From Phycisphaerales bacterium (GTDB lineage: Bacteria; Planctomycetota; Phycisphaerae; Phycisphaerales; SM1A02), in assembly GCA_046350355.1 (NCBI GenBank), contig JAXMAN010000002.1:70042-134041 (forward strand): a DNA stretch of 64,000 bases. Reading direction: 5' to 3'. This document shows positions 35,134 through 50,192 of the stretch, one piece after another (position 1 is the first letter of the stretch; the number at the start of each line of letters is the position of its first letter). Under the pieces are notes generated by a model. That model worked only from the letters and a program-made list of their open reading frames with translations, was not told the origin of the DNA and made no database searches. The position numbers and the translations under genes are program-made.

Positions 35134-37359
35134 ATGAGCATCGCCGCCTTCTCCGCCCGTGCCGCGATCGCGGCGACGGCGGCCCTCGGATGCGCCGCCT
35201 TTGCACAGGTCGACCCGGGGGACTGTGGCGCCTGCTGCGCCGTGCCGCCGCAGGTCTCGGGCTTCACCGCGCCCGCGCTTGTCAGCACCATGGGCGGCGT
35301 CGTCGGCTCGGACTTCGTGGTCCACGCCTTCGGCGTCGGCGGCTGCACCACGCAGCCGCCCGGTCCGTGGGTCAACCCGCCCGCGTTCCGCCATCCCGAC
35401 TGGACGCTCGCGAAGCTCGGCTCGGTCTTCGGCGTGACCGTCGACAGCCAGGGCAACGTCTATGTCGCGCACACTTCCGTCTACGACATCGACGCGCTCG
35501 GCACCGTCGGCGGCGGCGGGGCGGGCGCGATCTACAAGCTCGACAGCGCCACCGGCACGCCGAGCCTCTTCTGCACGCTCCCGAACTCCGCGCCCTGCTC
35601 GACGCCCGGCACCTTCTGCGCGCCCGGCATCGGCAACCTCACTTATTCCTGCGAGCACCACTGCATCTACGCGACCGACTTCGAGGACGGCCGCATCTAC
35701 CGCATCAGCATGACCGGCGCGCTGCTCGAGGCCTACAGCTTCGGCGACCAGGCGATCCAGAGCGCGGCGCCGATGCAGAACGACCCCATCGGCATCGCGC
35801 CCTGGGGCAAGCGCACCTGGGCGGTGGCGGTCGCGGGCGACCGGCTCTACTTCAGCGTCGTCCGCGCGGACATGAGCTACTTCCCGCAGATGCCCGGCGG
35901 CCCGCCGGGACCGCCGTATCCGCCGCCGGCCGCCGACCAGGAGATCTGGAGCATCCCGCTGACGCCCGTGACCGGCGCATTCGCGAGCGGCAACTCCACG
36001 CTCGAGATCCGCGTGCCCAAGTGCAACGTCGGCATCGTCAATCCCTTCAACACGCCGCTGCCGCCGGGCATCCTCTCGAACCCCGTCTCCGACATCGCCT
36101 TCGACGGCGACTGCTGCATGTACCTCGCCGAGCGCACGATGAACGACGCGACGACGACGGGCGCGCACTGCTCGCGGCTGCTCAAGTACTGCCGCGGCAC
36201 CGACGGGACGCCGTGGTCGCCCTCGAACGACCTCTTCGAGGTGGGGCAGACCACCTGCTCGAACATCTCGCTGGCCGCGCCCAACTCCGACGCGGGCGGC
36301 GTGGGCATCGATCCCAGCACCTGCAACCTGGTGTGGACGACCGCCGACTACATGGAGATGCCCTGGTGCAACGGCCCGGGCTGGTACTACGGCATCAACG
36401 GCCTGCCGCTCACCGGCGGCGTGAACGCCGCGGGCCTGCATATCGACATGAACGGCGACGTGAGCTACTTCGACAAGACGCGCATCGGCAGCGTCGAGGT
36501 CGCATGCCGCGTCGCGGATCCGTGCACGGCCAGCGCGGTGGCGACCTGCCATCTTGGCCCCGACGGGCTGCCCGACGGCACCTACGACCTCTCGATCACC
36601 GTGCACAACGGGCTCGACGGGCAGGCCGCGAACTTCATCCTGCTGCCGGATCTGGGCACCTACATCCCGCTGGTGCCGCCGCTGAATCCGGGCGAGTCGC
36701 GCAAGCTCACGACGACCGTCACGGGGCAGGGGCCGGGCACGCTCACGCTCGACATCGGCCTCTTCAACAGCTTCGGCGCCGATGGGCAGTGCTGCGGCAT
36801 CCTCGATGTCGAGGTGGAGCTGCCCGACTGCGACTGCATGCTCGTCGAGCACCTGACCGTCGACTGCACGGACGACCGCGATCCGACGACCTTCTGGTAC
36901 GACGTGCAGTTCACGGTGCGCAACACGAGCGCCTTCGTGGCCTCGCACTTCTTCATCATCCCGGTCTCCGCAGGCGTGACGACCGTGCCGCAGTACGTGG
37001 CGCTGCCGGCGCTGCTGCCGGGCCAGACCGCGCCGATCTCGTTCACCCTCAAGTTCCCCGGTCCGCCGCCGGTCGGACCCGACGGCCTCTGGCACACCTC
37101 GATCAGCTTCAGCATGCACAGCGCGAACCTGGCGATCTGCTGCAAGAAGGTCTGGGAGATCAGCGGTCCGCGCGAGTGCGCCGCGCCGCTGCTGGGCGAC
37201 CTCGACGGCGATGGCGATGTCGACGGCGCCGACCTCGGCCGCATGCTCGCGGCGTGGGGCGCCGCGGCGGCGCCCGGCGCGCCGGGCGACCTCAACGTCG
37301 ACGGCACGGTCGACGGCGTGGATCTGGGCGTGCTGCTGGGCGCGTGGGCGCCCCGCTGA
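35134..37359 (+). CDS. Large secreted protein (741 aa) with C-terminal dockerin-like repeats
   Basis: Signal peptide MSIAAFSARAAIAATAALGCAAFAQ. The body is Cys-rich with beta-propeller-like motifs (NVYVAH, RIYRIS). The C-terminus is [23 protein letters not shown] ... DLNVDGTVDGVDLGVLLGAWAPR. Confidence 0.8.
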   Translation: MSIAAFSARAAIAATAALGCAAFAQVDPGDCGACCAVPPQVSGFTAPALVSTMGGVVGSDFVVHAFGVGGCTTQPPGPWVNPPAFRHPDWTLAKLGSVFGVTVDSQGNVYVAHTSVYDIDALGTVGGGGAGAIYKLDSATGTPSLFCTLPNSAPCSTPGTFCAPGIGNLTYSCEHHCIYATDFEDGRIYRISMTGALLEAYSFGDQAIQSAAPMQNDPIGIAPWGKRTWAVAVAGDRLYFSVVRADMSYFPQMPGGPPGPPYPPPAADQEIWSIPLTPVTGAFASGNSTLEIRVPKCNVGIVNPFNTPLPPGILSNPVSDIAFDGDCCMYLAERTMNDATTTGAHCSRLLKYCRGTDGTPWSPSNDLFEVGQTTCSNISLAAPNSDAGGVGIDPSTCNLVWTTADYMEMPWCNGPGWYYGINGLPLTGGVNAAGLHIDMNGDVSYFDKTRIGSVEVACRVADPCTASAVATCHLGPDGLPDGTYDLSITVHNGLDGQAANFILLPDLGTYIPLVPPLNPGESRKLTTTVTGQGPGTLTLDIGLFNSFGADGQCCGILDVEVELPDCDCMLVEHLTVDCTDDRDPTTFWYDVQFTVRNTSAFVASHFFIIPVSAGVTTVPQYVALPALLPGQTAPISFTLKFPGPPPVGPDGLWHTSISFSMHSANLAICCKKVWEISGPRECAAPLLGDLDGDGDVDGADLGRMLAAWGAAAAPGAPGDLNVDGTVDGVDLGVLLGAWAPR

Positions 37360-37364
37360 CCTCC

Positions 37365-37398
37365 GGAAAATATGCCGGGCATGCCCGGCATATTTTCC
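37365..37398. repeat. 34-nt palindrome copy C (exact)
   Basis: It begins 6 nt after the stop of the 35134..37359 gene and ends 12 nt before the next ATG. Confidence 0.9.
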
Positions 37399-37409
37399 AC
37401 CCGATCCGG

Positions 37410-38327
37410 ATGACCGCAGAGCAGACGATCCAGCGTCCGATCCAGCCGCCATTCGCCAGCGCCGCCTGTCCGCGCTGCGGGCATCGGTGCGAGATCGATC
37501 CGGAACAGCCGCTCGCGCCGGTGCGGTGTCCGGATTGCGGGGGGGAGTTCGTTGGTGGGCGGGTGTGGGACGTCGCGCTCGCGGATCCGGCCGCGCGTCG
37601 GCGCTTCGCGTGGGCGCTGATCGTTGGTGGAGGGGCGTGCGTGCTTGGGATAGTCGCTCGAGAGGCGGGCCCGGTGCTCGTCGCGCTGGGTGTGCAGGTC
37701 GCCCGCGACGGACGCGGTTTTCAAAGCGCATGGATTGAACCGCTCCTGACGCTGATGGCGCATGTCGCGCAGTTCGTTTCCATCCCGGCGCAGTGGATGC
37801 TGCTTCGTGCTGGCCTGGCCGAGGCACGGCGCCCGCGCGCGATCTGGGCAGCGTGGGCGTGGCTGGTCGTGCAGTCGCTGTGCGTGTTGTTCAGCCTGCT
37901 TGTCCTTGCGGTGTGGATGAAGGATCGCGATCCGGGACAGTTCAGGCAGATGCAGGCGACGTATGAATCGATCAGCGGGTCGCTTGGAGGCGTGCCGGGG
38001 AACCTGCACCTTTCGATCGCGTTCGCCATCCCGGCGGGCGTGGCCATCATGCTCCTGCTCCTGGGCCTGCCTTCCCCCGGTTTGGTCGGACGATCGGTGA
38101 AGTTGGCATGCTTGATCATCGCCGCTGGCATCGTGCTGCCGTTCATGGTCCGCAGTGCGATGTCGATCCTGTCTGCGGTGGACTCAAACACGACCGTGCA
38201 GTTGGCCCAATCGGCCGCGTTCCGCGTGATCCACAGCGCAGCCACGCATTGGATCCCGTCTGCCACTGTCGCCATCGGCGGACTCATGCTCCTGCGGACG
38301 GGGATCCGCATGCGGGGCGCGCGATGA
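37410..38327 (+). CDS. Polytopic membrane protein with N-terminal C4 zinc ribbon
   Basis: MTAEQTIQRPIQPPFASAACPRCGHRCEIDPEQPLAPVRCPDCGG is followed by 5-6 TM helices. Its stop overlaps the next start (ATGA). Confidence 0.7.
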   Translation: MTAEQTIQRPIQPPFASAACPRCGHRCEIDPEQPLAPVRCPDCGGEFVGGRVWDVALADPAARRRFAWALIVGGGACVLGIVAREAGPVLVALGVQVARDGRGFQSAWIEPLLTLMAHVAQFVSIPAQWMLLRAGLAEARRPRAIWAAWAWLVVQSLCVLFSLLVLAVWMKDRDPGQFRQMQATYESISGSLGGVPGNLHLSIAFAIPAGVAIMLLLLGLPSPGLVGRSVKLACLIIAAGIVLPFMVRSAMSILSAVDSNTTVQLAQSAAFRVIHSAATHWIPSATVAIGGLMLLRTGIRMRGAR

Positions 38328-38911
38328 AGCCCCGCGCGCCGCGCCGCCTCCGCATCGCCGCGTGGATCGCGATCGCGGTCGCGCTCGGGGCGGCCACGCT
38401 GCAGGTCGCGAGCGTCCGCTGGTCGATGCGCTACGCCTTCGAAGCCGGCCCGCTCAGCGTCTCGCTTGACGCGGCCGATGGGCTCGCCGCGATCTGGGTC
38501 GCGACCAAGACGGGCGTCATGGGCGTCTACGACGTGGGCTGGCACGCCTCCCGCACTTCGCCGGCGCCGGACGAGGGGATCTTCGGTCGCGCGCTCGGCG
38601 GCTCCTGGCGATGGATCCTCGCCGAAGGCGGCAACGAGGTCATCCCGCCGCACGCGCACACGGTCTGGCGGCTGCCCGGCATCATCGAGTACGAGAGCGA
38701 TCCCGGCATGTGGGCGGATGGCGGCGTCGCGCGCACGCTCTCCTTCGTGGTGTGGCCGATCCCCGTGATCGCCGGCGCCTGCGCCTGGTGGCTTTTCGGC
38801 GCGGCGCGCCGCGCGCAGCGGCGCGCGACGGGTCGATGCGTCCGCTGCGGCTACGACCGGACCGGCGTCGCCGCGGGCGCGTTGTGCCCCGAATGCGGCA
38901 CCGCCGCCTGA
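38324..38911 (+). CDS. 2-TM membrane protein with C-terminal C4 zinc ribbon (family member)
   Basis: The N-terminal TM is MKPRAPRRLRIAAWIAIAVALGAA. The C-terminus is WWLFGAARRAQRRATGRCVRCGYDRTGVAAGALCPECGTAA. Confidence 0.7.
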   Translation: MKPRAPRRLRIAAWIAIAVALGAATLQVASVRWSMRYAFEAGPLSVSLDAADGLAAIWVATKTGVMGVYDVGWHASRTSPAPDEGIFGRALGGSWRWILAEGGNEVIPPHAHTVWRLPGIIEYESDPGMWADGGVARTLSFVVWPIPVIAGACAWWLFGAARRAQRRATGRCVRCGYDRTGVAAGALCPECGTAA

Positions 38912-38942
38912 AAATATGCCGGGCATGCCCGGCATGTTTTCC
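38909..38942. repeat. 34-nt palindrome copy D (two mismatches: TGAAAAT... and ...CATGTTTTCC)
   Basis: It overlaps the TGA stop of the 38324..38911 gene. The next gene's ATG is 31 nt downstream. Confidence 0.85.
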
Positions 38943-38972
38943 GCCACGCGCATCTACGATCCGCGCAGCACG

Positions 38973-39701
38973 ATGGAACTCCGCCCCGCGAGCATCGTCA
39001 TCCTCGACATCAGCGGATACACGAAGTTCATCCGGATGCACCGGCTCGCGGTCCTGCACGCGGAGCACATCATCAACGACCTGCTCGAGCACGCGATCGC
39101 CGCCACCGGCGCGCCGCTGGTCGTCAACAAGCTCCAGGGCGACGCCGTCCTCATGTACGCGGTCGCCGACGACCACGCGCCCGCCGCGCGCGCGATCGTC
39201 GAGATGGTCACGCGCTCCTTCGACGCCTTCCGCCGCCGCGAGCTCGAGCTCGTCAGCGACTGCAAGCTCTGCCCGTGCTCCGCGTGCACCAGCGTCCAGA
39301 ACCTGCGCCTGAAGGCGATCCTCCACCACGGCGACGTCGTCTTCAAGCGCATGCGCCAATTCGAGGAGATCGCCGGCCAGGAGGTCATCGTCGCGCACCG
39401 GCTGCTGAAGAACTCGATCGAGGCGGACGAGTACATCCTCGCCACCGACGCCTTCGACCGGCTCTTGGGCGGCGCGATCCCGGGCCACCGCCGCGAGGCG
39501 CGCCAGGAGCAGTGCGAGGGCATCGGCCCCGTCGCGGTCGCCGCGTACTTCGCCCAGGGCGCCGCGCCCGTCGCGCCGCCGCGCCGTACGCTGCTGCAGC
39601 GCGTGGGGATGTCGCTCTCGATGGACATGCACCTGCTCAAGCGCATCTTCCACCGCCCCGAGGGATTCGAGAATCTGCGGGCGGCGCAGGGCGGGCGCTG
39701 A
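38973..39701 (+). CDS. Hypothetical cytoplasmic protein (possibly DUF2652-like)
   Basis: MELRPASIVILDISGYTKFIRMHRLAVLHAEHIINDLLE... A conserved-looking core. A Cys cluster is CKLCPCSAC. The family assignment is from memory only. Confidence 0.6.
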   Translation: MELRPASIVILDISGYTKFIRMHRLAVLHAEHIINDLLEHAIAATGAPLVVNKLQGDAVLMYAVADDHAPAARAIVEMVTRSFDAFRRRELELVSDCKLCPCSACTSVQNLRLKAILHHGDVVFKRMRQFEEIAGQEVIVAHRLLKNSIEADEYILATDAFDRLLGGAIPGHRREARQEQCEGIGPVAVAAYFAQGAAPVAPPRRTLLQRVGMSLSMDMHLLKRIFHRPEGFENLRAAQGGR

Positions 39702-39755
39702 CAGCTGCGCATCGCCGCGCACCGTTTCGATGCACCGCTCACCGAGGAGAGATCC

Positions 39756-40901
39756 ATGACCCGCTTCCGGATGGCGTTCGTTTCGACCCTGCTCGCACTG
39801 CTCGCGGCCGCCGTGGCGCATGCCGGAGAGGAGAAGGCGATCCCGATCGGCGGCGCGACGCTGCACATCGCGGTGCCCGAGGGATGGAGCAGCAGCATCG
39901 ACAACCAGACGCCGCCCACGATCACGCTCAAGGCCGCCGATCCGTCGAAGGCGAACCTGCTGCTCACCGCGGTCGGTCCGCAGACGACCGACGCCGCGCT
40001 GCGCAAGGCCGCGCTCACGACGGGGAACTTCTACGCCCCCGGTTCGGTGGAGAAGAAGGTCACGTTCACGGAGGTCAAGGGCAAGGCGATCCACGGCTTC
40101 ATGTCCAGCTACACCGACGCGAGCAAGGGCACGGTCGAGTTTCGATATGTGACGGCGGGAAACCTCGTCAGCGGCAAGCGGGAGTTCATCGCGACCCTGC
40201 TGACGCAGTCGAAGGACGCGCCCGAACGCGCCGCCGGGCTCGAGGCGATCCGCTCGATCTCCGTCGTCGCGGACGGTCCCGAGGGCGCGCCCGCGGGTGC
40301 ACCCGCCGGCGGGGCCGCGTCGAAGTCCGCATCGCGCGACGAACTGCGCATTCCCAGCCCCGACGGCTCCTGGGTGCTGGTCCTGCCCGGGAAGTGGCGG
40401 TCGCGCGGCGTGCAGGTTTCGCCGGACGGCAAGGCCGCGCAGGCCTCGGCGATCTCGGCCAACGGGCTGATGATGACGATCTTCCTGGAGCCGGCCGCGC
40501 AGTCCGACGGGAACGCCGAAGCCGCGCGCGCCTTCTACCTCGAGCGGATGAAGGAGAACCCGCTGGGCATGGACGGCCTCAAGCAGCAGCTCGTCGGCGA
40601 GGTCGCCACGCTCGAGTACGACCAGGGCCTGGGCGACTTCACGCAGCACAACCTGAACGCGTACCTCGCGCACAAGGGCATCTGGGTCGACGTCCATGTC
40701 TCGAAGCCCGGCTTCAACGAACGCACCGACCGCGCGACGATCGACGCGCTCGTGAAGGGCATGCGCGCGGAGGATCGGACGCAGAAGTCGCTGGATGGCG
40801 GCTCGGGGTCCAAGGCGCAGGGGACGAAGCAGCAAGGGTCGAAGCAGCAGGGCTCGAAGCAGCAAGGCACGAAGCAGGGGGCGACGCCGCAGAATCCGTA
40901 G
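39756..40901 (+). CDS. Secreted hypothetical protein
   Basis: GGAGAG lies upstream. Signal peptide MTRFRMAFVSTLLALLAAAVAHA. The C-terminal repeats are QGTKQQGSKQQGSKQQGTKQ. Confidence 0.7.
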   Translation: MTRFRMAFVSTLLALLAAAVAHAGEEKAIPIGGATLHIAVPEGWSSSIDNQTPPTITLKAADPSKANLLLTAVGPQTTDAALRKAALTTGNFYAPGSVEKKVTFTEVKGKAIHGFMSSYTDASKGTVEFRYVTAGNLVSGKREFIATLLTQSKDAPERAAGLEAIRSISVVADGPEGAPAGAPAGGAASKSASRDELRIPSPDGSWVLVLPGKWRSRGVQVSPDGKAAQASAISANGLMMTIFLEPAAQSDGNAEAARAFYLERMKENPLGMDGLKQQLVGEVATLEYDQGLGDFTQHNLNAYLAHKGIWVDVHVSKPGFNERTDRATIDALVKGMRAEDRTQKSLDGGSGSKAQGTKQQGSKQQGSKQQGTKQGATPQNP

Positions 40902-41077
40902 CAGGGGAACACGCCGTCGGCGCCGCAGGGGTGAGGGATGAAAGGCCGCGTCACCTGCGCGGTTATCAAGCAGGAATGCCACTTGCGCAGGTGCCGGAGA
41001 GACCCTATGATTCCCCGTTCCGAGATGGGGCGCGCGCGATGTTCGAAGTAGCGCACGCGCGCCCCTCCGGAAGTTTT

Positions 41078-41149
41078 GCGGGTGTAACTCAGTGGTAGAG
41101 TGCCACCTTGCCAAGGTGGATGTCGAGGGTTCAAGTCCCTTCACCCGCT
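41078..41149 (+). tRNA. tRNA-Gly (anticodon GCC)
   Basis: GCGGGTG-TA-ACTC-AGTGGTA-GAGT-G-CCACC-TTGCCAA-GGTGG-ATGTC-GAGGG-TTCAAGT-CCCTT-CACCCGC-T. The cloverleaf has a 7-bp acceptor stem, a GTTCAAGT T-loop and a GCC anticodon. No CCA is encoded. Confidence 0.9.
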
Positions 41150-41155
41150 CTCCGA

Positions 41156-41188
41156 AAAGGCCCTCCTTGCGAGGGCCTTGTCGTTTTT
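41156..41188 (+). terminator. Intrinsic terminator of tRNA-Gly
   Basis: GGCCCTC-cttgc-GAGGGCC followed by TTGTCGTTTTTGG. Confidence 0.6.
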
Positions 41189-41209
41189 GGCACCGAAACT
41201 GGCACCGAG

Positions 41210-41446
41210 TCATCTCTGTCGATGCACAAGATCGCCTGCGCGAGGAAGCTCCACCTCGGCGTAGACCTCGGTCACCGGAGTGTGCTGGTGGCCAGCGACG
41301 ATGACGCCCTCGGCGTCCACCACGATGGGCTGGCGGAAGCCGAACTGGCGGATGCTCTGGGCGACCGCGGCGACGGCGTCGTCGTTGTCGCGGGGGTTGC
41401 CCGGGTAGGGACGGATCGAGCCGGTCGGCCGCAGCTCGACCTTCAC
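41210..41446 (-). pseudogene. ParB-like nuclease N-terminal domain fragment (truncated)
   Basis: 78 aa: ELRPTGSIRPYPGNPRDNDDAVAAVAQSIRQFGFRQPIVVDAEGVIVAGHQHT matches the ParB/Srx N-domain (NPR ... SI..G...PI.V...G.iiaGh.R). It stops after the domain, 58 nt from the tRNA 3' end. There is no partner C-terminal domain. Confidence 0.5.
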
Positions 41447-41580
41447 GTGGTCCCCCGGCGGTTCAGGTTGTCGGCAAGGCGATCGCTCACGCAGGGCTCC
41501 TGCGGGGCGACGCGCTCATCGTCGCATGCGCAGGGGCGGTGTCAAGCGGGCGGGAAGGGAATCTGAACTACGCTGCGGGC

Positions 41581-42057
41581 GTGCGCTTCCTGAAGCGGCT
41601 GACGATCCGGCTCCGGTGGCCAGCGGTGGTGGTGGCCGCCGCATTGCTAGCCGTCATCGCGCTGTCATGTCGCTATTCGTGGTTCGGCAGACTGCAGTGG
41701 GGGAACTCGACCTGGTCGCTGGGGGTCAACGCCACGGTCGTCGGGGGCCGCTGGAATGCGGACGTCTATCGGGACAACCTCGAGTACTTCCAATGGTTGG
41801 GACGGGCCGATTGGTCCGCATGGAGCATGGGAACCTACTTCGTCGCGAAAGCCTATGAGGACGTCCTGGCAGGCGCGTGGTTCGCGATGTGTCCGATCTG
41901 GTGGCTTGCGCTTCCGCCTGCGCTGCTCGCAGTCGCGGGCTTCCGCCTGAAGCGCCGCGAACAGACGCCCGGCCAGTGCAAACGCTGCGGCCACCCGCTA
42001 GCCGGCGCGGTGGTGTGCCCCGAGTGCGGCACGCCTGCGCCAGCATCGGCCGCGTGA
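41581..42057 (+). CDS. 2-TM membrane protein with C-terminal C4 zinc ribbon, tandem paralog 1 (GTG start inferred)
   Basis: VRFLKRLTIRLRWPAVVVAAALLAVIALS is TM1. The middle is a W-rich loop. TM2 is WWLALPPALLAVAGF. The tail is RLKRREQTPGQCKRCGHPLAGAVVCPECGT. Start is placed at the conserved GTG shared by the three paralogs. Confidence 0.6.
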   Translation: MRFLKRLTIRLRWPAVVVAAALLAVIALSCRYSWFGRLQWGNSTWSLGVNATVVGGRWNADVYRDNLEYFQWLGRADWSAWSMGTYFVAKAYEDVLAGAWFAMCPIWWLALPPALLAVAGFRLKRREQTPGQCKRCGHPLAGAVVCPECGTPAPASAA

Positions 42058-42259
42058 GCACGCGTCGACCGCGCGAAGAGTTATCTCAGCGGCCACTCGC
42101 ATCGCCGATTTGGACCAGATTTGGACCAGCGCATCCGTGCGCGTGTGTTTCCGTCTGCGCGTATCCGTCGCGACTATCGGCACTCAACCCCTTGTCCCCG
42201 CGTGCGTTGTGTGCTGATGTGTTCCGAAGTGGTGCGGAGTGCTACGCGACATTTCGCAC

Positions 42260-42306
42260 TTTGCCAAGGTGGATGTCGAGGGTTCAAGTCCCTTCCCCCG
42301 CTCTCC
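42260..42306 (+). repeat. Direct copy of the 3' half of tRNA-Gly (anticodon loop to 3' end plus 4-nt trailer), 45/46 identity
   Basis: TTGCCAAGGTGGATGTCGAGGGTTCAAGTCCCTTCCCCCGCTCTCC versus tRNA TTGCCAAGGTGGATGTCGAGGGTTCAAGTCCCTTCACCCGCTCTCC. Confidence 0.85.
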
Positions 42307-42307: not shown

Positions 42308-42340
42308 GACGGCGCTCTGACGAGCGCCGTCTTTCGTTTT
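42308..42340 (+). terminator. Intrinsic terminator following the tRNA-fragment copy
   Basis: GACGGCGCTC-tgac-GAGCGCCGTC followed by TTTCGTTTTGG. Confidence 0.5.
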
Positions 42341-42452: not shown

Positions 42453-42941
42453 GTGCGCTTCCTGAAGCGGTTGACGATCCGGCTCCGGTGGCCCGCTGCG
42501 GTGCTGGTTGGGCTGCTCACACTCGGATTCGTCTGTTCGGCTTTCTGGGGGTGTCGAGTCGACCTGAGCTTCCTCGGGAGTTGGTGGATCCTCGACCTTG
42601 GAAACACGATCGCCACCCTCACTCAATACGATTCACAGCTCGATCCTGGGCGACCCTCTCCGGATTTGGTTGTGACCGGCTACTCAGTCAAGTGGTATCC
42701 GATCGAGGATTTCGACCTCTTCCTCAATGCGTGGGTCCGGAAGGGATCTTGGCCGGGGGTCGACTGGGTCGCACGGCTGCCACTCTGGTATCTCGCACTA
42801 CCTCCGGCCCTGCTCGCCATCGCGGGGTTTGTCATGAAGCGCCGCGAACCGAAGCCCGGCCAGTGCCAGCATTGCCGCCACCCGCTCGCCGGCGCGGTGG
42901 TGTGCCCCGAGTGCGGCACGCGACCACTCGCCGCGTCCTGA
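42453..42941 (+). CDS. 2-TM membrane protein with C-terminal C4 zinc ribbon, tandem paralog 2 (GTG start inferred)
   Basis: VRFLKRLTIRLRWPAAVLVGLLTLGF... The C-terminus is LAIAGFVMKRREPKPGQCQHCRHPLAGAVVCPECGT. Confidence 0.6.
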   Translation: MRFLKRLTIRLRWPAAVLVGLLTLGFVCSAFWGCRVDLSFLGSWWILDLGNTIATLTQYDSQLDPGRPSPDLVVTGYSVKWYPIEDFDLFLNAWVRKGSWPGVDWVARLPLWYLALPPALLAIAGFVMKRREPKPGQCQHCRHPLAGAVVCPECGTRPLAAS

Positions 42942-43141
42942 TCTCGCCTTGAATCCAACGAGCTGCCTCCGCTGCCACTCATCACGCAACATCGGCCCCT
43001 CCGCCGTCCCGTAATCGCATTCGTTGACTGTCGCGCGTGACTCCACGCGCGTTCAATGCGACGCTCTGGTTGCCGCGGAGTGCGCCACCGGCCATCCGCG
43101 CACGCCCGCTCATCCACTCAATCGCCCCACCTCCCCCAACC

Positions 43142-43831
43142 ATGCCGCGCATTCCCGGGACCATCGCCGCGACCCTCCTCGCCGCACTCGGGGCGGCCCA
43201 CGCGCACGGCGAGGTCCTCTGCCTCGAGGGCACCCATCACTCCACCGACTTTCGGCTGCGCCCACACGACCTGATCATCGCGACGGCAGACCTCACGCTC
43301 TCGTGCGCGCGGACCCTGCGGATCGAGGGGCGCATCGTGGCGGCGCCGAGCTGCTCGATCCACCTCGTCGCGACCGAGCTGATCATCGACGACGGCCGGG
43401 TCTACGCGGGCGACGGTCTCTCGACCCACGCGATCGACGGCGACGGCGGCAAGGGGGGCGATGTCGTGCTGAACGCGCAGCGGATCACGATGTCCGACAC
43501 TGTCATCCGCGCGGGTCGTGGCGGGAACGCGGGACCGTCGGGCAACGGCGGCGCGGGAGGGGATATCCGAATCATCGGGACCCCCGAGAACAGCATCGAT
43601 GCAACCGTGATTCTCGACACGGGCGCCGCCGGCGAGGGCGGCGACGGCATCAGCGGCTTCTCCGAGGCCGCGCGCGCCGGAGGCAATGGCGGAGACGCGG
43701 GCAACCTCATCGTCAACGTCGCCTGGTGGTCGACGGGGGAGCGGCCCGCGCCGCCTCCAGTCCGGTCGCCAGTCAAGAACGCGCAGCGTGCCGTGGGTGC
43801 TTCGCGGATGGGGTGCGTGGCGGTGGATTGA
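43142..43831 (+). CDS. Secreted Gly-rich beta-helix-like repeat protein
   Basis: Signal peptide MPRIPGTIAATLLAALGAAHAHG. Repeats are GDGGKGGDVV, GRGGNAGPSGNGGAGGDIRI and GAAGEGGDGISG. Confidence 0.6.
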   Translation: MPRIPGTIAATLLAALGAAHAHGEVLCLEGTHHSTDFRLRPHDLIIATADLTLSCARTLRIEGRIVAAPSCSIHLVATELIIDDGRVYAGDGLSTHAIDGDGGKGGDVVLNAQRITMSDTVIRAGRGGNAGPSGNGGAGGDIRIIGTPENSIDATVILDTGAAGEGGDGISGFSEAARAGGNGGDAGNLIVNVAWWSTGERPAPPPVRSPVKNAQRAVGASRMGCVAVD

Positions 43832-43895
43832 GGGGTCGGGCGGCGGGGGACGCTGCGTCCGATGGCGAAGAAACCTCCCGCGATACGCTGCCTTC

Positions 43896-44423
43896 GTGCG
43901 CTTCCTAAAGCGGCTCGCAATCAAGCTCCGGTGGCCCGCGGCGATCGTGGCCGGGCTGCTCGTCGCGGTGGCGGGCTGGTCCTGCCTCTACTGCCAGTCC
44001 GTGGTGATGCGCACATCCTCGCGGATGCTCTCGATCCAGTACGAGCGGCTGCGGTGTGGCGTGGTGCTGATGGAGTCGGGCGTCGACTGGGGCAACGAGT
44101 GGGACCTGCGGTTCAACTCGCGCGACGCGAATTGGCAGACGGTCGCGCGCGCGCCGTGGGATTCGCTCTGGCGGACGATTTGGACCGCCCCGCGGCGCAG
44201 CGGCCTCGCGAACACGGTCTCGGGCGTCTCGTTCCCGATCTGGTACCTCGTGCTTCCGTCGGCGGCGCTTGCGATCGTGGGCTTTCGACTCAAGCGTCGG
44301 GAGCCGCGGCCCGGGCATTGCGTTCGCTGCCGGTATCCGCTCGCGGGCGCGGCGGCGTGTCCGGAGTGCGGGACGGCGGCGCCGCTCACTCCGGACGCAC
44401 CCCCGCCCCCGCCCGCGACGTAG
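43896..44423 (+). CDS. 2-TM membrane protein with C-terminal C4 zinc ribbon, tandem paralog 3 (GTG start inferred)
   Basis: VRFLKRLAIKLRWPAAIVAGLLVAVAGW... The C-terminus is LAIVGFRLKRREPRPGHCVRCRYPLAGAAACPECGTAAPL. Confidence 0.6.
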   Translation: MRFLKRLAIKLRWPAAIVAGLLVAVAGWSCLYCQSVVMRTSSRMLSIQYERLRCGVVLMESGVDWGNEWDLRFNSRDANWQTVARAPWDSLWRTIWTAPRRSGLANTVSGVSFPIWYLVLPSAALAIVGFRLKRREPRPGHCVRCRYPLAGAAACPECGTAAPLTPDAPPPPPAT

Positions 44424-44474
44424 CATCGCCCCACCGGGCCGCGACCGCCGCCCAGCGCTTTCCCGGAGGCCTCC

Positions 44475-45863
44475 ATGCTCGGCACGCTGCTCCTGACCCA
44501 CGCCGTCGCGATCGCGCTCGCCCAGGACGCGCCGCATGCCGACCCCGCGACGACGGCGCCGCCCGATCCGCCGCGCCACCCCGCGCTCGACAACCCGAAC
44601 TTCCAGCGCGGAAAGGTGGTCGAGTTCCCCAACGGCCTCACCGGACGCATCGGCTCCAGCTGCGTCTCGCCGCCCTTGAGCACGCTCCTGACGCCCGAGA
44701 CATGGATCGACGTCGCTCGCGCGACGACTGCGCTCGACCTGGATCCCGCGGGCGCCGCGGCGGGCTCGCTTCGTTCCGCCGCAGAGGCCTTTCGAGCGGC
44801 GCTTCGGGAGCGGCGCACCCGGGACTGGCGTCCGGCCGCGGACCGGATCAATGCGTCGATCGCCGAGAACGAGGCGCACCAGGTCGTCGATGACGAGCGG
44901 CTGCGCGCCGCCACCGCCGTCTTCTACCGCGACTGCGCGCTGGAGTCGATGCGCAACTTCGACGAGGAGTCGGCCGCGCTCGTGCGCGCGCTCGCCAGCG
45001 CTTCGGGCGGGGAGCTCGATCCGCAGGTCGCGCAGCGCGCATCGCGGTCGCTCTGGCGGACGCGCGTCACGGAGTTCCTTGGCGATTGGTCATCGATCCC
45101 GATGCCGCCGGTCGTCTCGATCCTGCTGCGCACGGAGATCGCCGGCGCACAGGTGAAGGCCGGCCACAAGGATGCCGTCGAAGCCATCCTCCAGCAGTTC
45201 GAGCCGCTGTGGGACGCTTCCTTGCGCGATCTCCTCAATGCGCACGCACGCGCTTTCACGAAGACCGAGGACACTCCGAGCGTGCTGCGTCCGGTCTCGG
45301 CCATCGTCGACCGCATGACCGACGCGGACGCGCGCGCGATCGCGGAGCTCGCGCCCCACCTGGACGATCCGGAGCTGCGGTGGACGCACGCTGTCCTCGT
45401 CCGCCGCTGTCCGCACGCGCGCGCCGTCGCCGATGCTTGGCTCGGCATCTCGCACCTGGCCGCGACCGCCGCCGATCCCGCGATTCGCACGCGGCTCGTG
45501 GCCGCCTCGGAGCTCCTTCGATCGCAGGTCGACGCGATGGCGCTCGTCTACCGCGATGGTTGGCGCGGGATCATCATCCACGGCGCGACGCCGACCCATC
45601 CGGAAGTCGCGAACTACGGCCCCGAGATGCGCAAGATCGCTCGGGATGCGCAGCGGCAGGCGCTGGCGCTGATCGCGACCATCGATGGCGCTGCCTCCGA
45701 GGCCGGGCCCGCCGACGCGATGATGGTCGCGCGCGCCACCCGCGACGCGCTGGTGCCGGTGACTGGCAAGCTGGAAGACGGCAAGCTTGCCGCGAAGGCC
45801 ATCGCGCCCGGCTGGCCGCCGATGGTGTGGACCAATGATGCCGGGGCGATGGTGCCGCGGTGA
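44475..45863 (+). CDS. Secreted hypothetical protein
   Basis: Signal peptide MLGTLLLTHAVAIALAQDAP. 462 aa, soluble, helical composition. Confidence 0.65.
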   Translation: MLGTLLLTHAVAIALAQDAPHADPATTAPPDPPRHPALDNPNFQRGKVVEFPNGLTGRIGSSCVSPPLSTLLTPETWIDVARATTALDLDPAGAAAGSLRSAAEAFRAALRERRTRDWRPAADRINASIAENEAHQVVDDERLRAATAVFYRDCALESMRNFDEESAALVRALASASGGELDPQVAQRASRSLWRTRVTEFLGDWSSIPMPPVVSILLRTEIAGAQVKAGHKDAVEAILQQFEPLWDASLRDLLNAHARAFTKTEDTPSVLRPVSAIVDRMTDADARAIAELAPHLDDPELRWTHAVLVRRCPHARAVADAWLGISHLAATAADPAIRTRLVAASELLRSQVDAMALVYRDGWRGIIIHGATPTHPEVANYGPEMRKIARDAQRQALALIATIDGAASEAGPADAMMVARATRDALVPVTGKLEDGKLAAKAIAPGWPPMVWTNDAGAMVPR

Positions 45864-47434
45864 GCGGGGAGGAGTCCCTTCTCGCTGTGATGCGCGACAC
45901 CGGTGCCTCCCGAGGTACGCTGTCGCCTGTGCGCACTCGACCGTGGGGAACTCCGCGCCATTCGCGCTTCGGCGCACCGCTCATCGCGGGCGTACTCACA
46001 CTTTCCCTCGCCTCCGCCACCTGTCTCGCGCAGTCGCCATCTGAGCCACCGCCGGCGACTCCATCCACGCGCGGGGACGACACGACGCCGCCCGTCCCCG
46101 TCGCCGAGGCGCCGCCTGCGACCGTCCTGTTCCCGGAGAGCCACTTCTCGATGTACTACCCGCCGCGGCCGATCGACCGGTCCGACGCGGCGTTCTATGT
46201 CTGGATCTCGGGCGCGGAAGGCGTCGACGCGGAGCAGATCCGGCAGTGGACGCTTGCACTCGCGGATCTGGATCCGGCGTGGATCAAGAGCGCCTTCGCG
46301 AACGTGCGCACCACGGCCAATGCATGCGCACTCGCGGGGATGAAGCATCCGCCGGCGGCGGAGCGTGCGCGCGACCTCGAAGCCTTGGCAAACATGCGCG
46401 ACACCGCGGCGGAGGGTATCGCCGCCAAGGAGCGCGCATTCCTGTGCTCCTTCCTCTCGCCCGATGCAGGCGATGCCGACCGGCGATCCGTGCTGATCGA
46501 CCGCGTCATGCAGGCCCGCAACGCGGAAGCGATCGAACTGACCATCACTGCGTCCGGCCACTGCGACGCTATGCCGATGCGCCTGCTGCACCGTGCCGCC
46601 ACAGACCAGCGCATTTCGCCTGAAGGGGCCGTCGCGCTTCGCCAGCTCGCCATAGACAACGCGGCGCGCGTCTATCAGCTTCGTCTGAGCACTGTTGCCG
46701 AAGCCATCCACCTGGCGCACCGCGCGGCGGCATCCCGAGCCGCGGCGGAGAGCCGTGGCGAATCGCAGGTTGGTGCGTCCGCTCCCGCTTACCGCGCCGT
46801 CGTTCTCGCCGCGGAACGTGCCGCGGAACTTCACCGCGAGCTGCTCCGGCTTGCCAGCACCTCCATGCCAGAAGCACTCGCTTCGGAGATCGACGCCGCC
46901 TACAAGGAGCAGGCATACGATCTCCTCGGCCGTGACGCGTTCTCCTTCGACCCAATCGTGGCGGCGCTTCGGCCACTCATGGCGCCGGAGGCACAGCACA
47001 CCGCCGACGAGTTGACTGCCGCCGACCGCAGCTATCGACGGGCGATGCACGATGCGGCGCTCGAACTCTTCGACCGGACCGTGAATCGCATGGTCCGCCG
47101 TGGACGCGTGGTGGATCCAGAGGAATCCGCACGTTTCGCGAACGCGCTCATCGCGTATCACGAGAACGCGTACAGGAGCGCGGGGCGCACGATCGACTCC
47201 CTCGCCGAGCTCGCCCGAGCGCGGGATGGTTGGGACGAACCGACTTACCAGCGGCTCCGCGCAGACTGGGAGAAAACTGTCCGATCGCGACTCAAGGAAC
47301 TGATGAACCGCGGCGTGACATCGCGCGCGGCGAGCGATGACCTGTTCGACCGCGAGGGCACCATCACGCCCGCGTCGGACTCCGTCATGCTTCGGAAGCA
47401 GAGGGCCCCGAACATGCATGCAGCCCCCCGGTGA
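45860..47434 (+). CDS. Secreted hypothetical protein (GTG start overlapping upstream stop, GTGA)
   Basis: An internal signal-like segment is RFGAPLIAGVLTLSLASATCLAQS. Alternative starts at M11 are possible. 524 aa. Confidence 0.55.
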   Translation: MSGEESLLAVMRDTGASRGTLSPVRTRPWGTPRHSRFGAPLIAGVLTLSLASATCLAQSPSEPPPATPSTRGDDTTPPVPVAEAPPATVLFPESHFSMYYPPRPIDRSDAAFYVWISGAEGVDAEQIRQWTLALADLDPAWIKSAFANVRTTANACALAGMKHPPAAERARDLEALANMRDTAAEGIAAKERAFLCSFLSPDAGDADRRSVLIDRVMQARNAEAIELTITASGHCDAMPMRLLHRAATDQRISPEGAVALRQLAIDNAARVYQLRLSTVAEAIHLAHRAAASRAAAESRGESQVGASAPAYRAVVLAAERAAELHRELLRLASTSMPEALASEIDAAYKEQAYDLLGRDAFSFDPIVAALRPLMAPEAQHTADELTAADRSYRRAMHDAALELFDRTVNRMVRRGRVVDPEESARFANALIAYHENAYRSAGRTIDSLAELARARDGWDEPTYQRLRADWEKTVRSRLKELMNRGVTSRAASDDLFDREGTITPASDSVMLRKQRAPNMHAAPR

Positions 47435-48164
47435 TTCGTTCGTACTCGCCGTGACTCCGCCGCGCTCGTCCAACTCCCTTCGCACGGCCTTCCTTCCCGC
47501 TCCCGTCCCCGCGCCGGTGCGGACGCTCGCCATCGCTTCGCGCCTCTGCCTGATCGCGGCTTGGGTTGGCGCGTTGCTCGTCACGGGCGAGCTTGCCTGC
47601 GACGCCATTCTCAGAAACTTCGGCACGCCCTCCACGAGCGCGTGGGTCTGGGCCTTGGGCGCGCGCTGGGGCGCAATCCTCACCGCGCTCGCCGTGCTGA
47701 CCGCGCTGCTGTGCCCGCTCGTCTCGATCACCCTCGACCGCATGCGCCTGAGCCGCACGGAGGAGATGGCGCGCGCCCGTGCCTGCAATCGCTGCGGCTA
47801 CGCCGACGCGGGCACCGGCGAACGCTGCAGCGAGTGCGGCGCGGCGCCGGTGCAGCACGTCGCGCCGCCGCTCTCGGCGGTGCTCGCCTACACGGGCGGC
47901 GGGTTCTTCGGCCTCGGCGCGGGCCGCGGCGCGAACGCGCAGCTGGGCGATTCCGTGGGGAACGCGCTCCACGCGGCCGCCTCTGCGCAGTGGATTCAAC
48001 GCATCGACCGCGCGCTGTTCACCCTCATCGTCGTCAACATCGTGCTCACGCAGCGGCCGCTTGGCGTCCCGATGTCGATGAGCCTGGTGCTCCTGCCCTT
48101 CGTCGCGGCGGCAATCCTGCTGCGGATCACGATCCGCCACTGCATGTCATTTCGGGCGCTGTGA
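47418..48164 (+). CDS. Membrane protein with internal C4 zinc ribbon (divergent family member)
   Basis: TM helices flank the zinc ribbon ARACNRCGYADAGTGERCSECGAAP. The start is uncertain and overlaps the upstream gene end. Confidence 0.5.
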   Translation: MQPPGDSFVLAVTPPRSSNSLRTAFLPAPVPAPVRTLAIASRLCLIAAWVGALLVTGELACDAILRNFGTPSTSAWVWALGARWGAILTALAVLTALLCPLVSITLDRMRLSRTEEMARARACNRCGYADAGTGERCSECGAAPVQHVAPPLSAVLAYTGGGFFGLGAGRGANAQLGDSVGNALHAAASAQWIQRIDRALFTLIVVNIVLTQRPLGVPMSMSLVLLPFVAAAILLRITIRHCMSFRAL

Positions 48165-50192
48165 TGCGTCGCCGCGCGGATCTTCCGGCGCCGCGGCCGG
48201 GATCGCCGCCCGCAGCCGCTGCGCCTCCTCCGCGATGCGCGTCTCCGCCGCGTGCGGCTCGATCGCGGGCGCCCACTCCTCGCTCGCCAGCAACGCGAGC
48301 GCCGGCGAGGCCTCCGACGCGCCCACCGGCGGCGCCGTATCGAAGGCCTTGAGCTGCGCGATCCGGCCCCGCATGCGGTCGAGTGGCGCGTCCTCCCACA
48401 GCATCGCGCCGAGTGCGCGCGTGTGGCGCTCGGAGCGGTCGTCCGGCAGCGCGTCCGCGGCGTCCAGCACCAGCGTGATGGCCAGCAGCCGCTGCTCCGG
48501 GAGCTTGTCAAGTTCGGCCTGGATCCGCCGGCACCAGTCGCCCAACTGTGCGGTGGAGTCCGCATCCGGTCGCAGCATGAGGCGCACCGCGAGGCGCGTG
48601 CGCTGCTTGCCCGCCCACGCCGCGAGGTCGACCGGCGGCATCGTCGCCAGCGCTTCGAGCGCGTCGCGCAGCGCCGCGCGCGTCGACGCGTCCGCGGCTC
48701 CGAGCATGCCCAGCACGACATCCAGCTCCCGCAGCGTCTGCGCAACGGACGCGCGCAGCACGCATCGTGCGACGGGATCCTCCACGCTGCACGCCGCGCG
48801 CGCTGCGCGCAGCCACAGCAGCGTCTCGCGCGCGCAGGCCGGCACATCGCCGGACCGCGCGGCGCATCGCGCGCGCTCGACCACCAGCGCGAGCGCATCC
48901 GCCGTCCGCAGCGCCGCGAACGATGCCGGCACGCCGCGTGCCCGCCACTGCGCCGGCTGCGACCAGTCGAGCGGGGGGTTCGTCGCGGCCAGCGCCTGGA
49001 AGAGGCGCTCGAGCGGCGGCAGGTGCAACTCGTCGCACTCCCCGTCGGACGCGGGCGCGCTCGCGGTCGCGGAGAGCTCCCGTATCCGCGTCAGCGTCGG
49101 CGACTGCGCGACCTGCGCGTCGATCCGGTCGAGCCAGTACGCGGCCCGCCGGCGCGCGGCGGAGTTGTCGTAGCGCTCCGGCACGAGCGCCTCCGCGATC
49201 GCGCGCCGCGCACGCAGGTCGCGCGCGACGGTCGCGGCGCGCTCCAGGAGCGCGCAGGGCGTCTCGCCGAGGATCGACTCCGAGAGCAGCGCACGCTCGA
49301 ACGCGCCCCATTCCGATGCGCGCAGCGCGTCGCAGACCGGCGGTGCAGGCGCCGCTCCCGGAGCGTCCGCAGGCACCGCCAGCGCGAGCGCCTGGGCCGA
49401 GCGCTTCCAGAGCGCGGCCACACGCTGCGCCCCGGCGGCCCACTCGCCCTCGGACATCGACCGGAGCTGCGTCAGCGGAGCGACCAGGTCTGGCGTGGCG
49501 CTCGGCGGGGGCGAGATCTTCCTGGCTCCCTCCGCGCCTGCGTCCTGGGCGCGCTCGCGCCGTAGCCACGTGACCCACGCGTCGCACACGTCGGCGAGCG
49601 CGCGCGCGCGCCCCGTCGGATCGGCCGAATCCAGCCGCTGCATCGCGCTGAGGATCCTCCCCGCGTCCAATGCGGAGACGCGGTCGAGCTCGAGCGCCCC
49701 GTCAAAGGCCTGCATCGCCTGCGCGAGCACCCACTCGGAGAACATCGAGCCCGCGATGGTGCGATCGCGCGCAAGCTGCCCACCGAGCGAGAAGAGCGTG
49801 GCGATCGAACCGATCGCGCGGTCGTGCTCCGGTCCGTCGAGTTGCGCCCGCGCGCTCAGCAACAGGAGCGCCGTCGCCCGCCGGACCGCCATTCCGTCGG
49901 CGGGGAAGTACTCCGGCGGCGCGTCCGGGTCATCCTTGTCGTCCGTGGGCGCCGCGCCCGGCCCCCGCACATGCGCCGCACGCGCGAGCGCGGCCAGCGT
50001 CTTCGCCTGGCTTGCCAGGATCGCGCGGGCGCGGGCGGTCACCAGGGCGTCCGCGTCGAGCCCCCCGACCTCCACGATCACGGTCTCGACCGGCCGCAGC
50101 TCCGATGCATCAAGAATCGCTCGATAGTCCGGCCGGCCCGTGGGCTGCGCGGCCTGGAGCGCGAGTGCGCTGACGAGCGTGAGCATCACCAT
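48147..50192 (-). CDS. Secreted hypothetical protein (681 aa)
   Basis: Signal peptide MVMLTLVSALALQAAQP. Coding-like helical composition. It is convergent with the 47418..48164 gene. Confidence 0.6.
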   Translation of the reverse strand: MVMLTLVSALALQAAQPTGRPDYRAILDASELRPVETVIVEVGGLDADALVTARARAILASQAKTLAALARAAHVRGPGAAPTDDKDDPDAPPEYFPADGMAVRRATALLLLSARAQLDGPEHDRAIGSIATLFSLGGQLARDRTIAGSMFSEWVLAQAMQAFDGALELDRVSALDAGRILSAMQRLDSADPTGRARALADVCDAWVTWLRRERAQDAGAEGARKISPPPSATPDLVAPLTQLRSMSEGEWAAGAQRVAALWKRSAQALALAVPADAPGAAPAPPVCDALRASEWGAFERALLSESILGETPCALLERAATVARDLRARRAIAEALVPERYDNSAARRRAAYWLDRIDAQVAQSPTLTRIRELSATASAPASDGECDELHLPPLERLFQALAATNPPLDWSQPAQWRARGVPASFAALRTADALALVVERARCAARSGDVPACARETLLWLRAARAACSVEDPVARCVLRASVAQTLRELDVVLGMLGAADASTRAALRDALEALATMPPVDLAAWAGKQRTRLAVRLMLRPDADSTAQLGDWCRRIQAELDKLPEQRLLAITLVLDAADALPDDRSERHTRALGAMLWEDAPLDRMRGRIAQLKAFDTAPPVGASEASPALALLASEEWAPAIEPHAAETRIAEEAQRLRAAIPAAAPEDPRGDASQRPK

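Follow-up and report, generated by a model that had tools for sequence, protein, structure and literature searches.

Arrays of orphan Rhs/YD C-terminal toxin/immunity cassettes have reportedly been described by Koskiniemi et al. in 2013, and islands of acquired interbacterial defence, that is, of orphan immunity genes, are said to have been described by Ross et al. in 2019. In the work of Zhang et al. (2012; PMC3482391), the small open reading frame (ORF) directly downstream of the C-terminal toxin domain of an Rhs protein is the immunity gene, Rhs toxin/immunity cassettes pile up in orphan arrays and in polyimmunity loci, and immunity families with two transmembrane (TM) helices exist, for example Imm17, which has been reported in Bacteroidetes, Firmicutes, Fusobacteria and Spirochaetes. 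A search of this 2012 catalogue by the term zinc-ribbon returned no zinc-ribbon immunity family, a result that reaches as far as the catalogue uses that term (PMC3482391). Here we consider 15 kb (35.1-50.2 kb) of a 64-kb stretch of Phycisphaerales DNA, the whole of which we call the window, where genes for small membrane proteins with two predicted TM helices and a C-terminal zinc ribbon (ZnR-2TM proteins) lie among genes for exported proteins. We propose that this cluster may be a polyimmunity-like (orphan-immunity) variable islet, a reading to which we assign a probability of about 45%; the stretch is most likely an interbacterial-defence locus, because relatives of its ZnR genes occupy the immunity position in Rhs toxin cassettes.

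A preliminary description of this DNA had pointed to zinc-ribbon membrane proteins, and six ORFs, all on the forward strand, indeed combine a CxxC...CPxCG ribbon with hydrophobic helices. When all 64 kb are translated in six frames, the motif has 6 matches, all within 37.5-47.8 kb, where simulated sequence matched in dinucleotide composition gives an expectation of 0.01. The description had also held that essentially every gene of the 15 kb is either secreted or a zinc-ribbon protein, which is mostly the case: plausible signal-peptide N-termini are present in the six proteins named as secreted (at 35134, 39756, 43142, 44475, 45860/45890 and, on the reverse strand, 50192), while the gene at 38916-39701 departs from the rule in encoding a cytoplasmic DUF2652 protein. 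However, about 60% of all window genes carry a signal peptide or a TM segment by a crude hydrophobicity test, so that the clustering of the ZnR motif, and not the run of envelope proteins, is statistically striking; the former is strongly unusual, the latter weakly so. The statement that none of the secreted proteins matches a housekeeping family is borne out: Pfam, NCBIfam, PADLOC and PHROGs gave no match above a curated threshold for any of the exported or ZnR proteins, and none of the secreted proteins could be assigned to ordinary periplasmic metabolism.

The three closest paralogs, ZnR1, ZnR2 and ZnR3, show pairwise amino acid identities of 40-44% overall (E 1e-27 to 1e-34); ZnR1 and ZnR2 are 43% identical (E 1e-34), with nucleotide identities of 91% over 69 positions in an N-terminal block and 80% over 157 in a C-terminal block. 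All three have the same layout, consisting of a basic N-terminus, TM1, a hypervariable loop of ~100 amino acids that is predicted to be periplasmic, TM2, and the tail KRREPKPGQCxxCRHPLAGAAxCPECG. Eight sequences show next to no variation in either the N block (MRFLKRLTIRLRWPA) or the C block (PxWYLALPPALLAxAGFxLKRREPKPGQCxxCRHPLAGAAxCPECG), the ~100 residues between the predicted TM helices are unalignable, and the 23 invariant alignment columns are all located in TM2 or the ZnR tail. In nucleotide sequence the centre of the gene is at chance (identity 0.3-0.4). Conservation in the N block is spread evenly over codon positions (0.74-0.84 at positions 1+2, 0.70-0.81 at position 3), which points to gene conversion or to a constraint acting on DNA or RNA, and the corresponding values for the C block, 0.85-0.92 versus 0.60-0.69, indicate constraint on the protein. 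The four-Cys motif of ZnR1 is visible directly in its sequence, and its scores lie below the Pfam thresholds for DZR (PF12773, 19.2 bits; 27.3 required) and Zn_ribbon_3 (PF13248, 18.0; 27 required). A fourth protein, ZnR_195, is a distant member of the superfamily, whose TM2 and zinc ribbon are 40-44% identical to those of ZnR1 and ZnR3 (E 1e-5) and which matches many of the superfamily's metagenome members.

The close subfamily is tiny, with 7 hits in a word-indexed search of 5.8 billion proteins. For the superfamily, a profile search of 1.84 billion representatives (clusters at 50% identity) returned 3,377 proteins at E<=1e-3, 76 at <=1e-10 and 10 at <=1e-30; most are 145-200 amino acids long and matched over their full length, and the longer ones are concatenated ZnR modules with no informative fusion partner domain. 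The wider signature PLW-TM-RRxPPGHCxxCGYNLTGNxSGxCPECG occurs in 17 metagenome loci, and the genes typically stand in same-strand tandem arrays of 2-7 copies (L004-L020), three of which (L009, L019, L013) are pure arrays of 3-7 ZnR-2TM genes. The window subfamily matches the array members over TM2 and the zinc ribbon with an hhalign probability of 98.3% (E 1.4e-14). The ZnR alignment found zero relatives in 2.9 million viral contigs, the ZnR profile found nothing significant among PDB sequences, and in the literature on the motif, on zinc-ribbon proteins of Planctomycetes and on zinc-ribbon immunity proteins we found no description of the family. On three ENA contigs (L031-L033) a ZnR gene (10001-10693 in L031) directly adjoins an AbiEi/AbiEii toxin-antitoxin pair, and its downstream neighbour differs on these otherwise identical contigs, being a TolC-like gene of 474 amino acids in two and an ORF of 171 amino acids in the other; we take this difference as another sign that ZnR genes sit at variable junctions.

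The connection with toxin/immunity systems comes from two unrelated metagenome contigs, from different organisms. One, of 208 kb (L006), carries four consecutive forward-strand cassettes, in each of which an ORF with an RHS core is directly followed by a ZnR-2TM gene (7128-8246 then 8261-8647; 8669-9550 then 9764-10234; 10307-11647 then 11602-12141; 12250-12936 then 12861-13676). These RHS-core ORFs end in ...RQYDPxxRRFxQRDP followed by a variable Cys-rich domain, and they score 37.7, 36.6, 44.6 and 25.6 bits with TIGR03696, whose cut-off is 32.5. On the other contig (L008; TIGR01643 at 20.1 and 19.7 bits, cut-off 15.8), a YD-repeat end with a Cys-rich tail (2-1354) is followed by a ZnR-2TM gene (1065-1859) and then by a further YD fragment (to 2376). 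The immunity slot, meaning the small same-strand ORF directly 3', is therefore filled by a ZnR-2TM gene in 5/5 cassettes. The second and fourth RHS-core ORFs of L006 (8669-9550 and 12250-12936) start with a signal peptide joined straight onto the Rhs junction motif, which gives these cassettes the look of standalone Sec-exported toxins. The Cys-rich C-terminal domains of the L006 and L008 cassettes match no known family. Of the three interpretations first offered for the stretch, a signalling pair, a polymorphic secreted-effector system and paired duplication, it is the second that comes closest, on account of these superfamily members in the Rhs/YD immunity slot. Duplication describes the ZnR genes, which are paralogous, but not the exported proteins, which have no detectable similarity to one another; the gene order said to repeat, a ZnR gene and then a secreted one, turns out to be loose, with no repeating unit and no strict alternation or pairing.

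Between strains the region proved variable, and within it the part from 41 to 50 kb is a tRNA-Gly-linked, compositionally deviant, recombination-prone segment, which is mosaic in three relatives, the short contigs L003, L021 and L022 from other samples. L003 matches the window at the tRNA end and its hairpin (98.5%) and in the ParB/ZnR1 5' region (95.4%), and has directly after the tRNA end an extra 2.1 kb, lacking in the window, that encodes an exported helical protein of 474 amino acids and a longer version of the ParB relic. Its ZnR gene has a centre of ~260 nucleotides that cannot be aligned, placed between the conserved blocks and flanks that are 95% identical. In L022, at ~76% nucleotide identity, a ZnR gene is followed by an ortholog of sec462 (69% amino acid identity) while the gene upstream differs, and the loop of this ZnR protein is again unalignable. 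L021 has a ZnR gene followed by a TM-ZnR-TM protein of 469 amino acids that is not in the window, and a relic in which a ZnR 3' block and the spacer precede the initial 19 codons of sec462 (92.5% nucleotide identity), after which comes a different exported helical protein of 514 amino acids; its neighbours are unrelated. The adjacency of ZnR gene and sec462 is thus kept in L022 and survives as a relic in L021. Judged by its substitutions, sec462 is a real gene, because its differences from the L022 ortholog are 0.19, 0.13 and 0.43 at the three codon positions.

In the window, sec229, ZnR3, sec462, sec524 and the membrane protein ZnRmid (47418-48164) form a tightly spaced block on one strand, and this block (43.1-48.2 kb) has operon-like spacing with zero predicted terminators inside. 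No family match was obtained for sec229, sec524 or sec681 in scans of Pfam, NCBIfam and PHROGs, nor for ZnRmid and the membrane protein at 37410-38327, the latter having an architecture unlike that of the ZnR-2TM family. Four independent short-read assemblies of the same strain (L027-L030; Logan SRR26348419, -20, -22 and -23) end inside the C block of ZnR2, at about position 42892 of the window. The blocks shared by the paralogs thus act as assembly-breaking repeats, and the arrangement of ZnR1, ZnR2 and ZnR3 in the metagenome-assembled genome (MAG) deserves confirmation by long reads. The MAG in question is a Phycisphaerales assembly at NCBI with a 1.3-Mb contig, to whose proteins those of the region are identical or 99% identical; the locus tags are U0625_06765 for sec741, U0625_06800 for ZnR1, U0625_06805 for ZnR2 and U0625_06815 for ZnR3, and their spacing agrees with the gene list made here.

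The 15 kb is not one unit but two different parts, from 35.1 to 40.9 kb and from 41.15 to 50.2 kb. Because the G+C content of the window is ~72%, raw ORF lists consist mostly of shadow frames, and genes were called from codon usage and from G+C at third codon positions (GC3). Nearly all window genes have GC3 values of 0.92-0.98, and values of 0.76-0.91 apply to all genes of the tract that starts with the ParB relic and ends with sec681 (41.2-50.2 kb); upstream of the tRNA, low GC3 is confined to the gene at 37.4-38.3 kb (0.80 over 37455-38327), so that 4/5 genes of the first part are native in composition. G+C falls to 0.655 in the window's 41-43 kb and is 0.653 in L003. The first part holds sec741, the DUF2652 protein, one further exported protein and two ZnR membrane proteins, and the second begins at the tRNA-Gly. 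Hence the earlier impression of an accessory region is borne out for the second part, by low GC3, the tRNA border, the repeat that resembles an attachment (att) site and the mosaic relatives, and only partially for the first, where composition is mostly native and the sec741 family is Phycisphaerales-wide; even there, gene order is unconserved in the one related genome compared. As a side observation, low GC3 also occurs at 26549-27907, in genes for a 370-amino-acid protein (0.84) and a two-TM protein of 77 amino acids (0.86), which may be a further small patch of foreign DNA.

The tRNA that had been noticed is real, a tRNA-Gly(GCC) on which ARAGORN and Rfam agree, and so is the att-like repeat: the 3' half of the tRNA (41104-41153) recurs 1,153 nucleotides downstream (42257-42306) with 48/50 positions identical, where 0 such matches are expected by chance, and a separate terminator-like hairpin with a T-tract comes after each of the two copies. 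The two copies bound a relic of 1.15 kb that contains a ParB pseudogene and ZnR1. What had been called a nuclease fragment is a fragment, namely an N-terminal piece of ParB with a weak ParB_N match; its first 53 amino acids are 96% identical to the longer version in L003 (PF02195, 42.2 bits; phrog_620, E 2e-28) and it diverges beyond them. It is the only mobile-element relic found. The low-GC3 tract extends 8 kb past the second tRNA repeat, and no third tRNA-fragment repeat bounding the whole tract was found. Of the three palindromic elements described before, what stands is two copies of one 34-nucleotide hairpin, accompanied by two terminator hairpins. The palindrome (GGAAAATATGCCGGGCATGCCCGGCATATTTTCC; 15-bp stem, 4-nucleotide CATG loop, -26.7 kcal/mol) occurs 4 times in 64 kb with 0-1 mismatch (18527-18560, 33832-33865, 37365-37398, 38909-38942) and is absent from 22 related loci (L001-L022). 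Three copies are intergenic, two of them 12-31 nucleotides 5' of the likely start of the next gene and the third ~20 nucleotides upstream of the start of an AIM24 gene on the reverse strand; because the copy at 18.5 kb falls inside a called gene of 1316 amino acids, the true start of that gene may lie downstream. The palindrome looks like a repetitive extragenic palindromic (REP)-like or bidirectional-terminator repeat, and it is not specific to the ZnR region because copies also occur at 18.5 and 33.8 kb.

If the cluster is a polyimmunity-like islet, the ZnR-2TM proteins would be membrane-anchored immunity proteins whose variable periplasmic loop neutralises polymorphic toxins that act in the periplasm, and new variants would arise in the islet when ZnR genes recombine at their conserved 5' and 3' blocks. 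Anchoring, oligomerisation and contact with a conserved partner are conceivable tasks for the zinc ribbon, which is invariant and predicted to be cytoplasmic. Several observations weigh against this proposal. A search of the window in all six frames detected no Rhs core (best E 0.35), no toxin domain could be recognised in it, and the genes upstream of the window ZnR genes encode exported proteins or are relics, with no recognisable toxins among them. Homology between the window proteins and the Rhs-linked members covers only TM2 and the zinc ribbon, 56 columns, and the function of the former could therefore differ. The superfamily also has members in unrelated settings, with AbiE and TolC-like genes as neighbours, close to an IS110 transposase or among dockerin proteins. 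A conserved cytoplasmic zinc ribbon and N-segment are atypical for immunity proteins and suggest an intracellular partner, and the topology itself comes from a crude hydropathy calculation. Pfam scans of the called ORFs between 33 and 53.5 kb revealed no integrase or recombinase, and because of this, and because the att-bounded relic measures only 1.15 kb, the outer limit of any island is drawn from composition alone.

A rival explanation is that there is no functional unit here at all, which we hold unlikely even though it fares best after the reading that we prefer. The genes would then be ordinary lineage-specific envelope genes, with a housekeeping envelope role for the ZnR proteins, and tandem duplication of a common small membrane family next to a decayed tRNA-integrated element would have made them chance neighbours. 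The high share of exported and membrane proteins across the window (~60%) agrees with this, as do the lack of relationship among the exported proteins, the commonness of the sec741 family in Phycisphaerales with a paralog elsewhere in the genome, the many unrelated contexts of the superfamily and the generally poor conservation of gene order in the lineage. Chance neighbourhood does not predict, however, that the ZnR motif should be limited to 10 of 64 kb against an expectation of 0.01, that the centre of a ZnR gene should be replaced between 95%-identical flanks, or that displaced gene fragments and low GC3 should be present, and it does not account for the ZnR-2TM gene that follows 5/5 Rhs/YD cassettes in L006 and L008.

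It is less probable still that the Ala/Arg-rich exported helical proteins are themselves the effectors, in a polymorphic effector-immunity system of this lineage that is independent of Rhs. Candidates would be sec462, sec524 and sec681, together with the proteins of 474, 514 and 383 amino acids at the L003, L021 and L022 loci, and modules of one exported protein and one ZnR-2TM protein would be exchanged at the invariant 5' and 3' ZnR blocks. The two L006 cassettes with signal peptides look like an intermediate form. Blastp, phmmer and hhalign found no similarity among the helical exported proteins, which share composition alone. A single-sequence AlphaFold2 model of sec462 was all-alpha with a predicted local distance difference test (pLDDT) score of 46, and was kept out of the fold search as unusable; the structural check for toxin folds that had been suggested could thus be carried through for sec741, a propeller protein in which no toxin fold appeared.

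We give even less weight to transmembrane signalling, in which the loop would detect a ligand, perhaps the exported protein encoded next to it, and the cytoplasmic segments would pass a signal to a partner as anti-sigma factors do. A sensor would suit the contrast between a variable loop and two near-invariant cytoplasmic segments, the ZnR3-sec462 adjacency kept in L022, and the block at 43.1-48.2 kb, which resembles an operon with no terminator predicted inside. Yet Pfam scans of the cluster and the genes beside it showed neither a sigma factor nor a kinase or regulator, the zinc ribbon is C-terminal and of the CxxC...CPxC type without the HxxxCxxC motif of anti-sigma factors, arrays of up to 7 copies and linkage to Rhs are not expected of sensors, and the loop is unalignable upstream of the sec462 orthologs though sec462 itself is 69% identical; the suggested signalling pair thus finds no support. 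A zinc-binding anti-sigma factor (ZAS) was considered separately and rejected, the ribbon being C-terminal and without the His motif and the cluster having no sigma gene. That the ZnR genes are cargo of a degraded prophage or integrative element, for instance superinfection-exclusion or receptor-masking proteins, can be given little credence, since against the duplicated tRNA 3' half with a terminator at each copy, the ParB-like relic with strong PHROG matches, the position of ZnR1 inside the att-bounded segment and the low G+C at 41-43 kb and in L003 stand the absence of the family from 2.9 million viral contigs, the lack of any PHROG match for a ZnR or exported protein and of integrase or structural genes, the location of ZnR2 and ZnR3 outside that segment and the mostly chromosomal tandem arrays of the family.

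Features of the interval 35.1-50.2 kb, in window coordinates
Feature	Position	Strand	Values and remarks
sec741, exported: six-bladed beta-propeller, two Ig-like sandwiches, putative C-terminal GC-type dockerin module	35134..37359	+	
34-nucleotide perfect palindrome GGAAAATATGCCGGGCATGCCCGGCATATTTTCC, intergenic	37365..37398		
Membrane protein, N-terminal zinc ribbon (CPRC...CPDC), ~4 TM helices	37410..38327	+	GC3 0.80
ZnR_195: TM1, ~110-amino-acid outer loop, TM2 (TM predicted), C-terminal zinc ribbon	38324..38911	+	
Palindrome copy 2, between ZnR_195 and DUF2652 gene	38909..38942		1 mismatch
DUF2652 protein, cytoplasmic	38916..39701	+	PF10851 103.9 bits; likely true start 38973 (MELRP...)
sec381, exported, two similar halves, C-terminal (QQGSK)n tail	39756..40901	+	signal peptide
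tRNA-Gly(GCC)	41078..41150	+	ARAGORN; Rfam RF00005 71.2 bits
attL-like copy (tRNA 3' half)	41104..41153	+	followed by terminator hairpin 41157-41179
ParB-like (phage/plasmid type) truncated N-terminus, pseudogene remnant	41210..41446	-	78 codons
ZnR1, 2-TM with C-terminal zinc ribbon, between tRNA-repeat copies	41581..42057	+	GC3 0.82; ORF opens 41539
attR-like tRNA-Gly 3'-half copy	42257..42306	+	48/50; own terminator hairpin 42308-42331
ZnR2, ZnR1 paralog	42456..42941	+	GC3 0.76
sec229, exported, Gly-rich (GGxGGxAG repeats)	43142..43831	+	GC3 0.87
ZnR3, third paralog	43896..44423	+	40-42% amino acid identity to ZnR1/ZnR2
sec462, exported, all-alpha (predicted), Ala/Arg/Leu-rich	44475..45863	+	
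sec524/514, exported, Ala/Arg-rich, probably all-alpha	45890..47434	+	GC3 0.78; start 45860/45890
ZnRmid, membrane protein, TM-TM-ZnR-TM-TM	47418..48164	+	
sec681, exported, Ala/Arg-rich, convergent with the forward-strand block	48147..50192	-	end of low-GC3 segment

Among the genes of native composition, sec741 (GC3 0.95) is a surface protein of an ordinary kind that occurs throughout the lineage, with no relation to either the ZnR family or the variable segment. We detected 37 homologs, nearly all in Phycisphaerales, among them a paralog with 57% identity elsewhere in the same MAG; one homolog is named "GC-type dockerin domain-anchored protein" at NCBI, and several carry PF00404. Its AlphaFold2 model, built from an alignment of 30 sequences (pLDDT 84.7), consists of a six-bladed propeller, two beta-sandwich domains and two short C-terminal dockerin-like helices, and the Foldseek matches are propellers of the YWTD/NHL type. 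The Dockerin_1 score is 19.6 bits against a cut-off of 22.9, and the gene contains an internal duplication of 90 nucleotides (37191-37348). Five window proteins end in one duplicated dockerin-like module (DLxGDGxVDGxDLGxLLxxWG, twice; 1292-1435, 3858-4007, 26377-26511, 37191-37348 and 50288-50440), among them an S8 peptidase/PA14 protein (50282-53554) that adjoins the stretch. Dockerin modules of Phycisphaerae have been discussed as a "planctosome" (PMC6461901). The two-segment module that sec741, the S8 peptidase and three other window proteins share is like that of such surface proteins, a likeness that explains only sec741 and is unrelated to the ZnR family.

The exported protein sec381 has a 15-nucleotide tandem repeat (40806-40880) encoding (QQGSK/QQGTK)x4-5 at its C-terminus, and neither a family match nor anything significant in a search of PDB sequences was found for it. 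Synteny was compared with one related genome, the Phycisphaerales MAG JBGARR01. The DUF2652 ortholog there (60% identical, beginning MMEIRP) lies in a different neighbourhood (L002), among genes that we take from their translations to be lepA, lpxA, purF-like, rpsD, ppiD/surA-like, a sulfatase and ileS. A different contig carries the sec741 ortholog (79% identical), flanked there by a beta-helix protein and a repeat protein. No other window protein had a match within 10 kb of either ortholog, and since the two share none of the window neighbours, the region is not syntenic at this distance, which speaks against conservation across the order. Elsewhere in the window, six closely packed reverse-strand genes at 18864-24406, four of which overlap a neighbour by 4-7 nucleotides, include a MoxR-type AAA+ ATPase (23459-24406) and a membrane protein with a VWA domain (20767-21666), the two that the family scans covered; the run resembles a BatA/MoxR-type operon, ordinary and unrelated to the ZnR stretch.

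Interbacterial antagonism in the Planctomycetota is, to our knowledge, almost unexplored experimentally. If the ZnR-2TM proteins are immunity proteins, they would be among the larger immunity superfamilies, with ~3,400 clusters at 50% identity, and of unusual design, with a variable periplasmic loop between two invariant cytoplasmic segments. This design would then provide a sequence signature by which planctomycete genomes and MAGs could be searched for toxin/immunity loci and for islands that vary between strains, and the five pairs of Rhs C-terminal domain and ZnR gene in L006 and L008 are concrete candidates for toxicity-rescue experiments. The shared ZnR blocks also explain why short-read assemblies break at the locus. 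Should the immunity assignment be wrong, what remains is a cleanly described hot spot of recombination linked to a tRNA.

Compared with known systems, the locus combines traits of several. With tRNA-linked islands it shares the tRNA border, the direct repeat of the tRNA 3' end, the ParB relic and the deviant composition, but it has no integrase and its repeat-bounded segment measures only 1.15 kb. Like polyimmunity loci and acquired defence islands, it would be a group of immunity-type genes that lie apart from any cognate toxin, in variable DNA of horizontal origin, and three paralogs and one distant member, hypervariable between strains, are present in the window; whereas known defence islands hold mixed families of soluble immunity proteins and often recombinases, the window has one membrane family, with exported proteins in between, and no recombinase. 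Imm17 is likewise a small two-TM protein of polyimmunity loci, but, compared by its description, it is marked by a WxW motif and an interhelical Arg and has no zinc ribbon (PMC3482391). The candidate's own architecture, a two-TM protein with an invariant cytoplasmic zinc ribbon, was not found in the 2012 catalogue when this was searched for zinc ribbons. The relatives on L006 and L008 are arranged like canonical orphan Rhs/YD arrays, that is, an Rhs-core or YD end, a variable domain and a small same-strand ORF, in tandem. The window itself differs from such arrays in having no Rhs/YD gene or recognisable toxin domain, and shares with them tandem paralogs, conserved blocks around hypervariable sequence, displaced fragments, replacement at the level of strains and an atypical composition.

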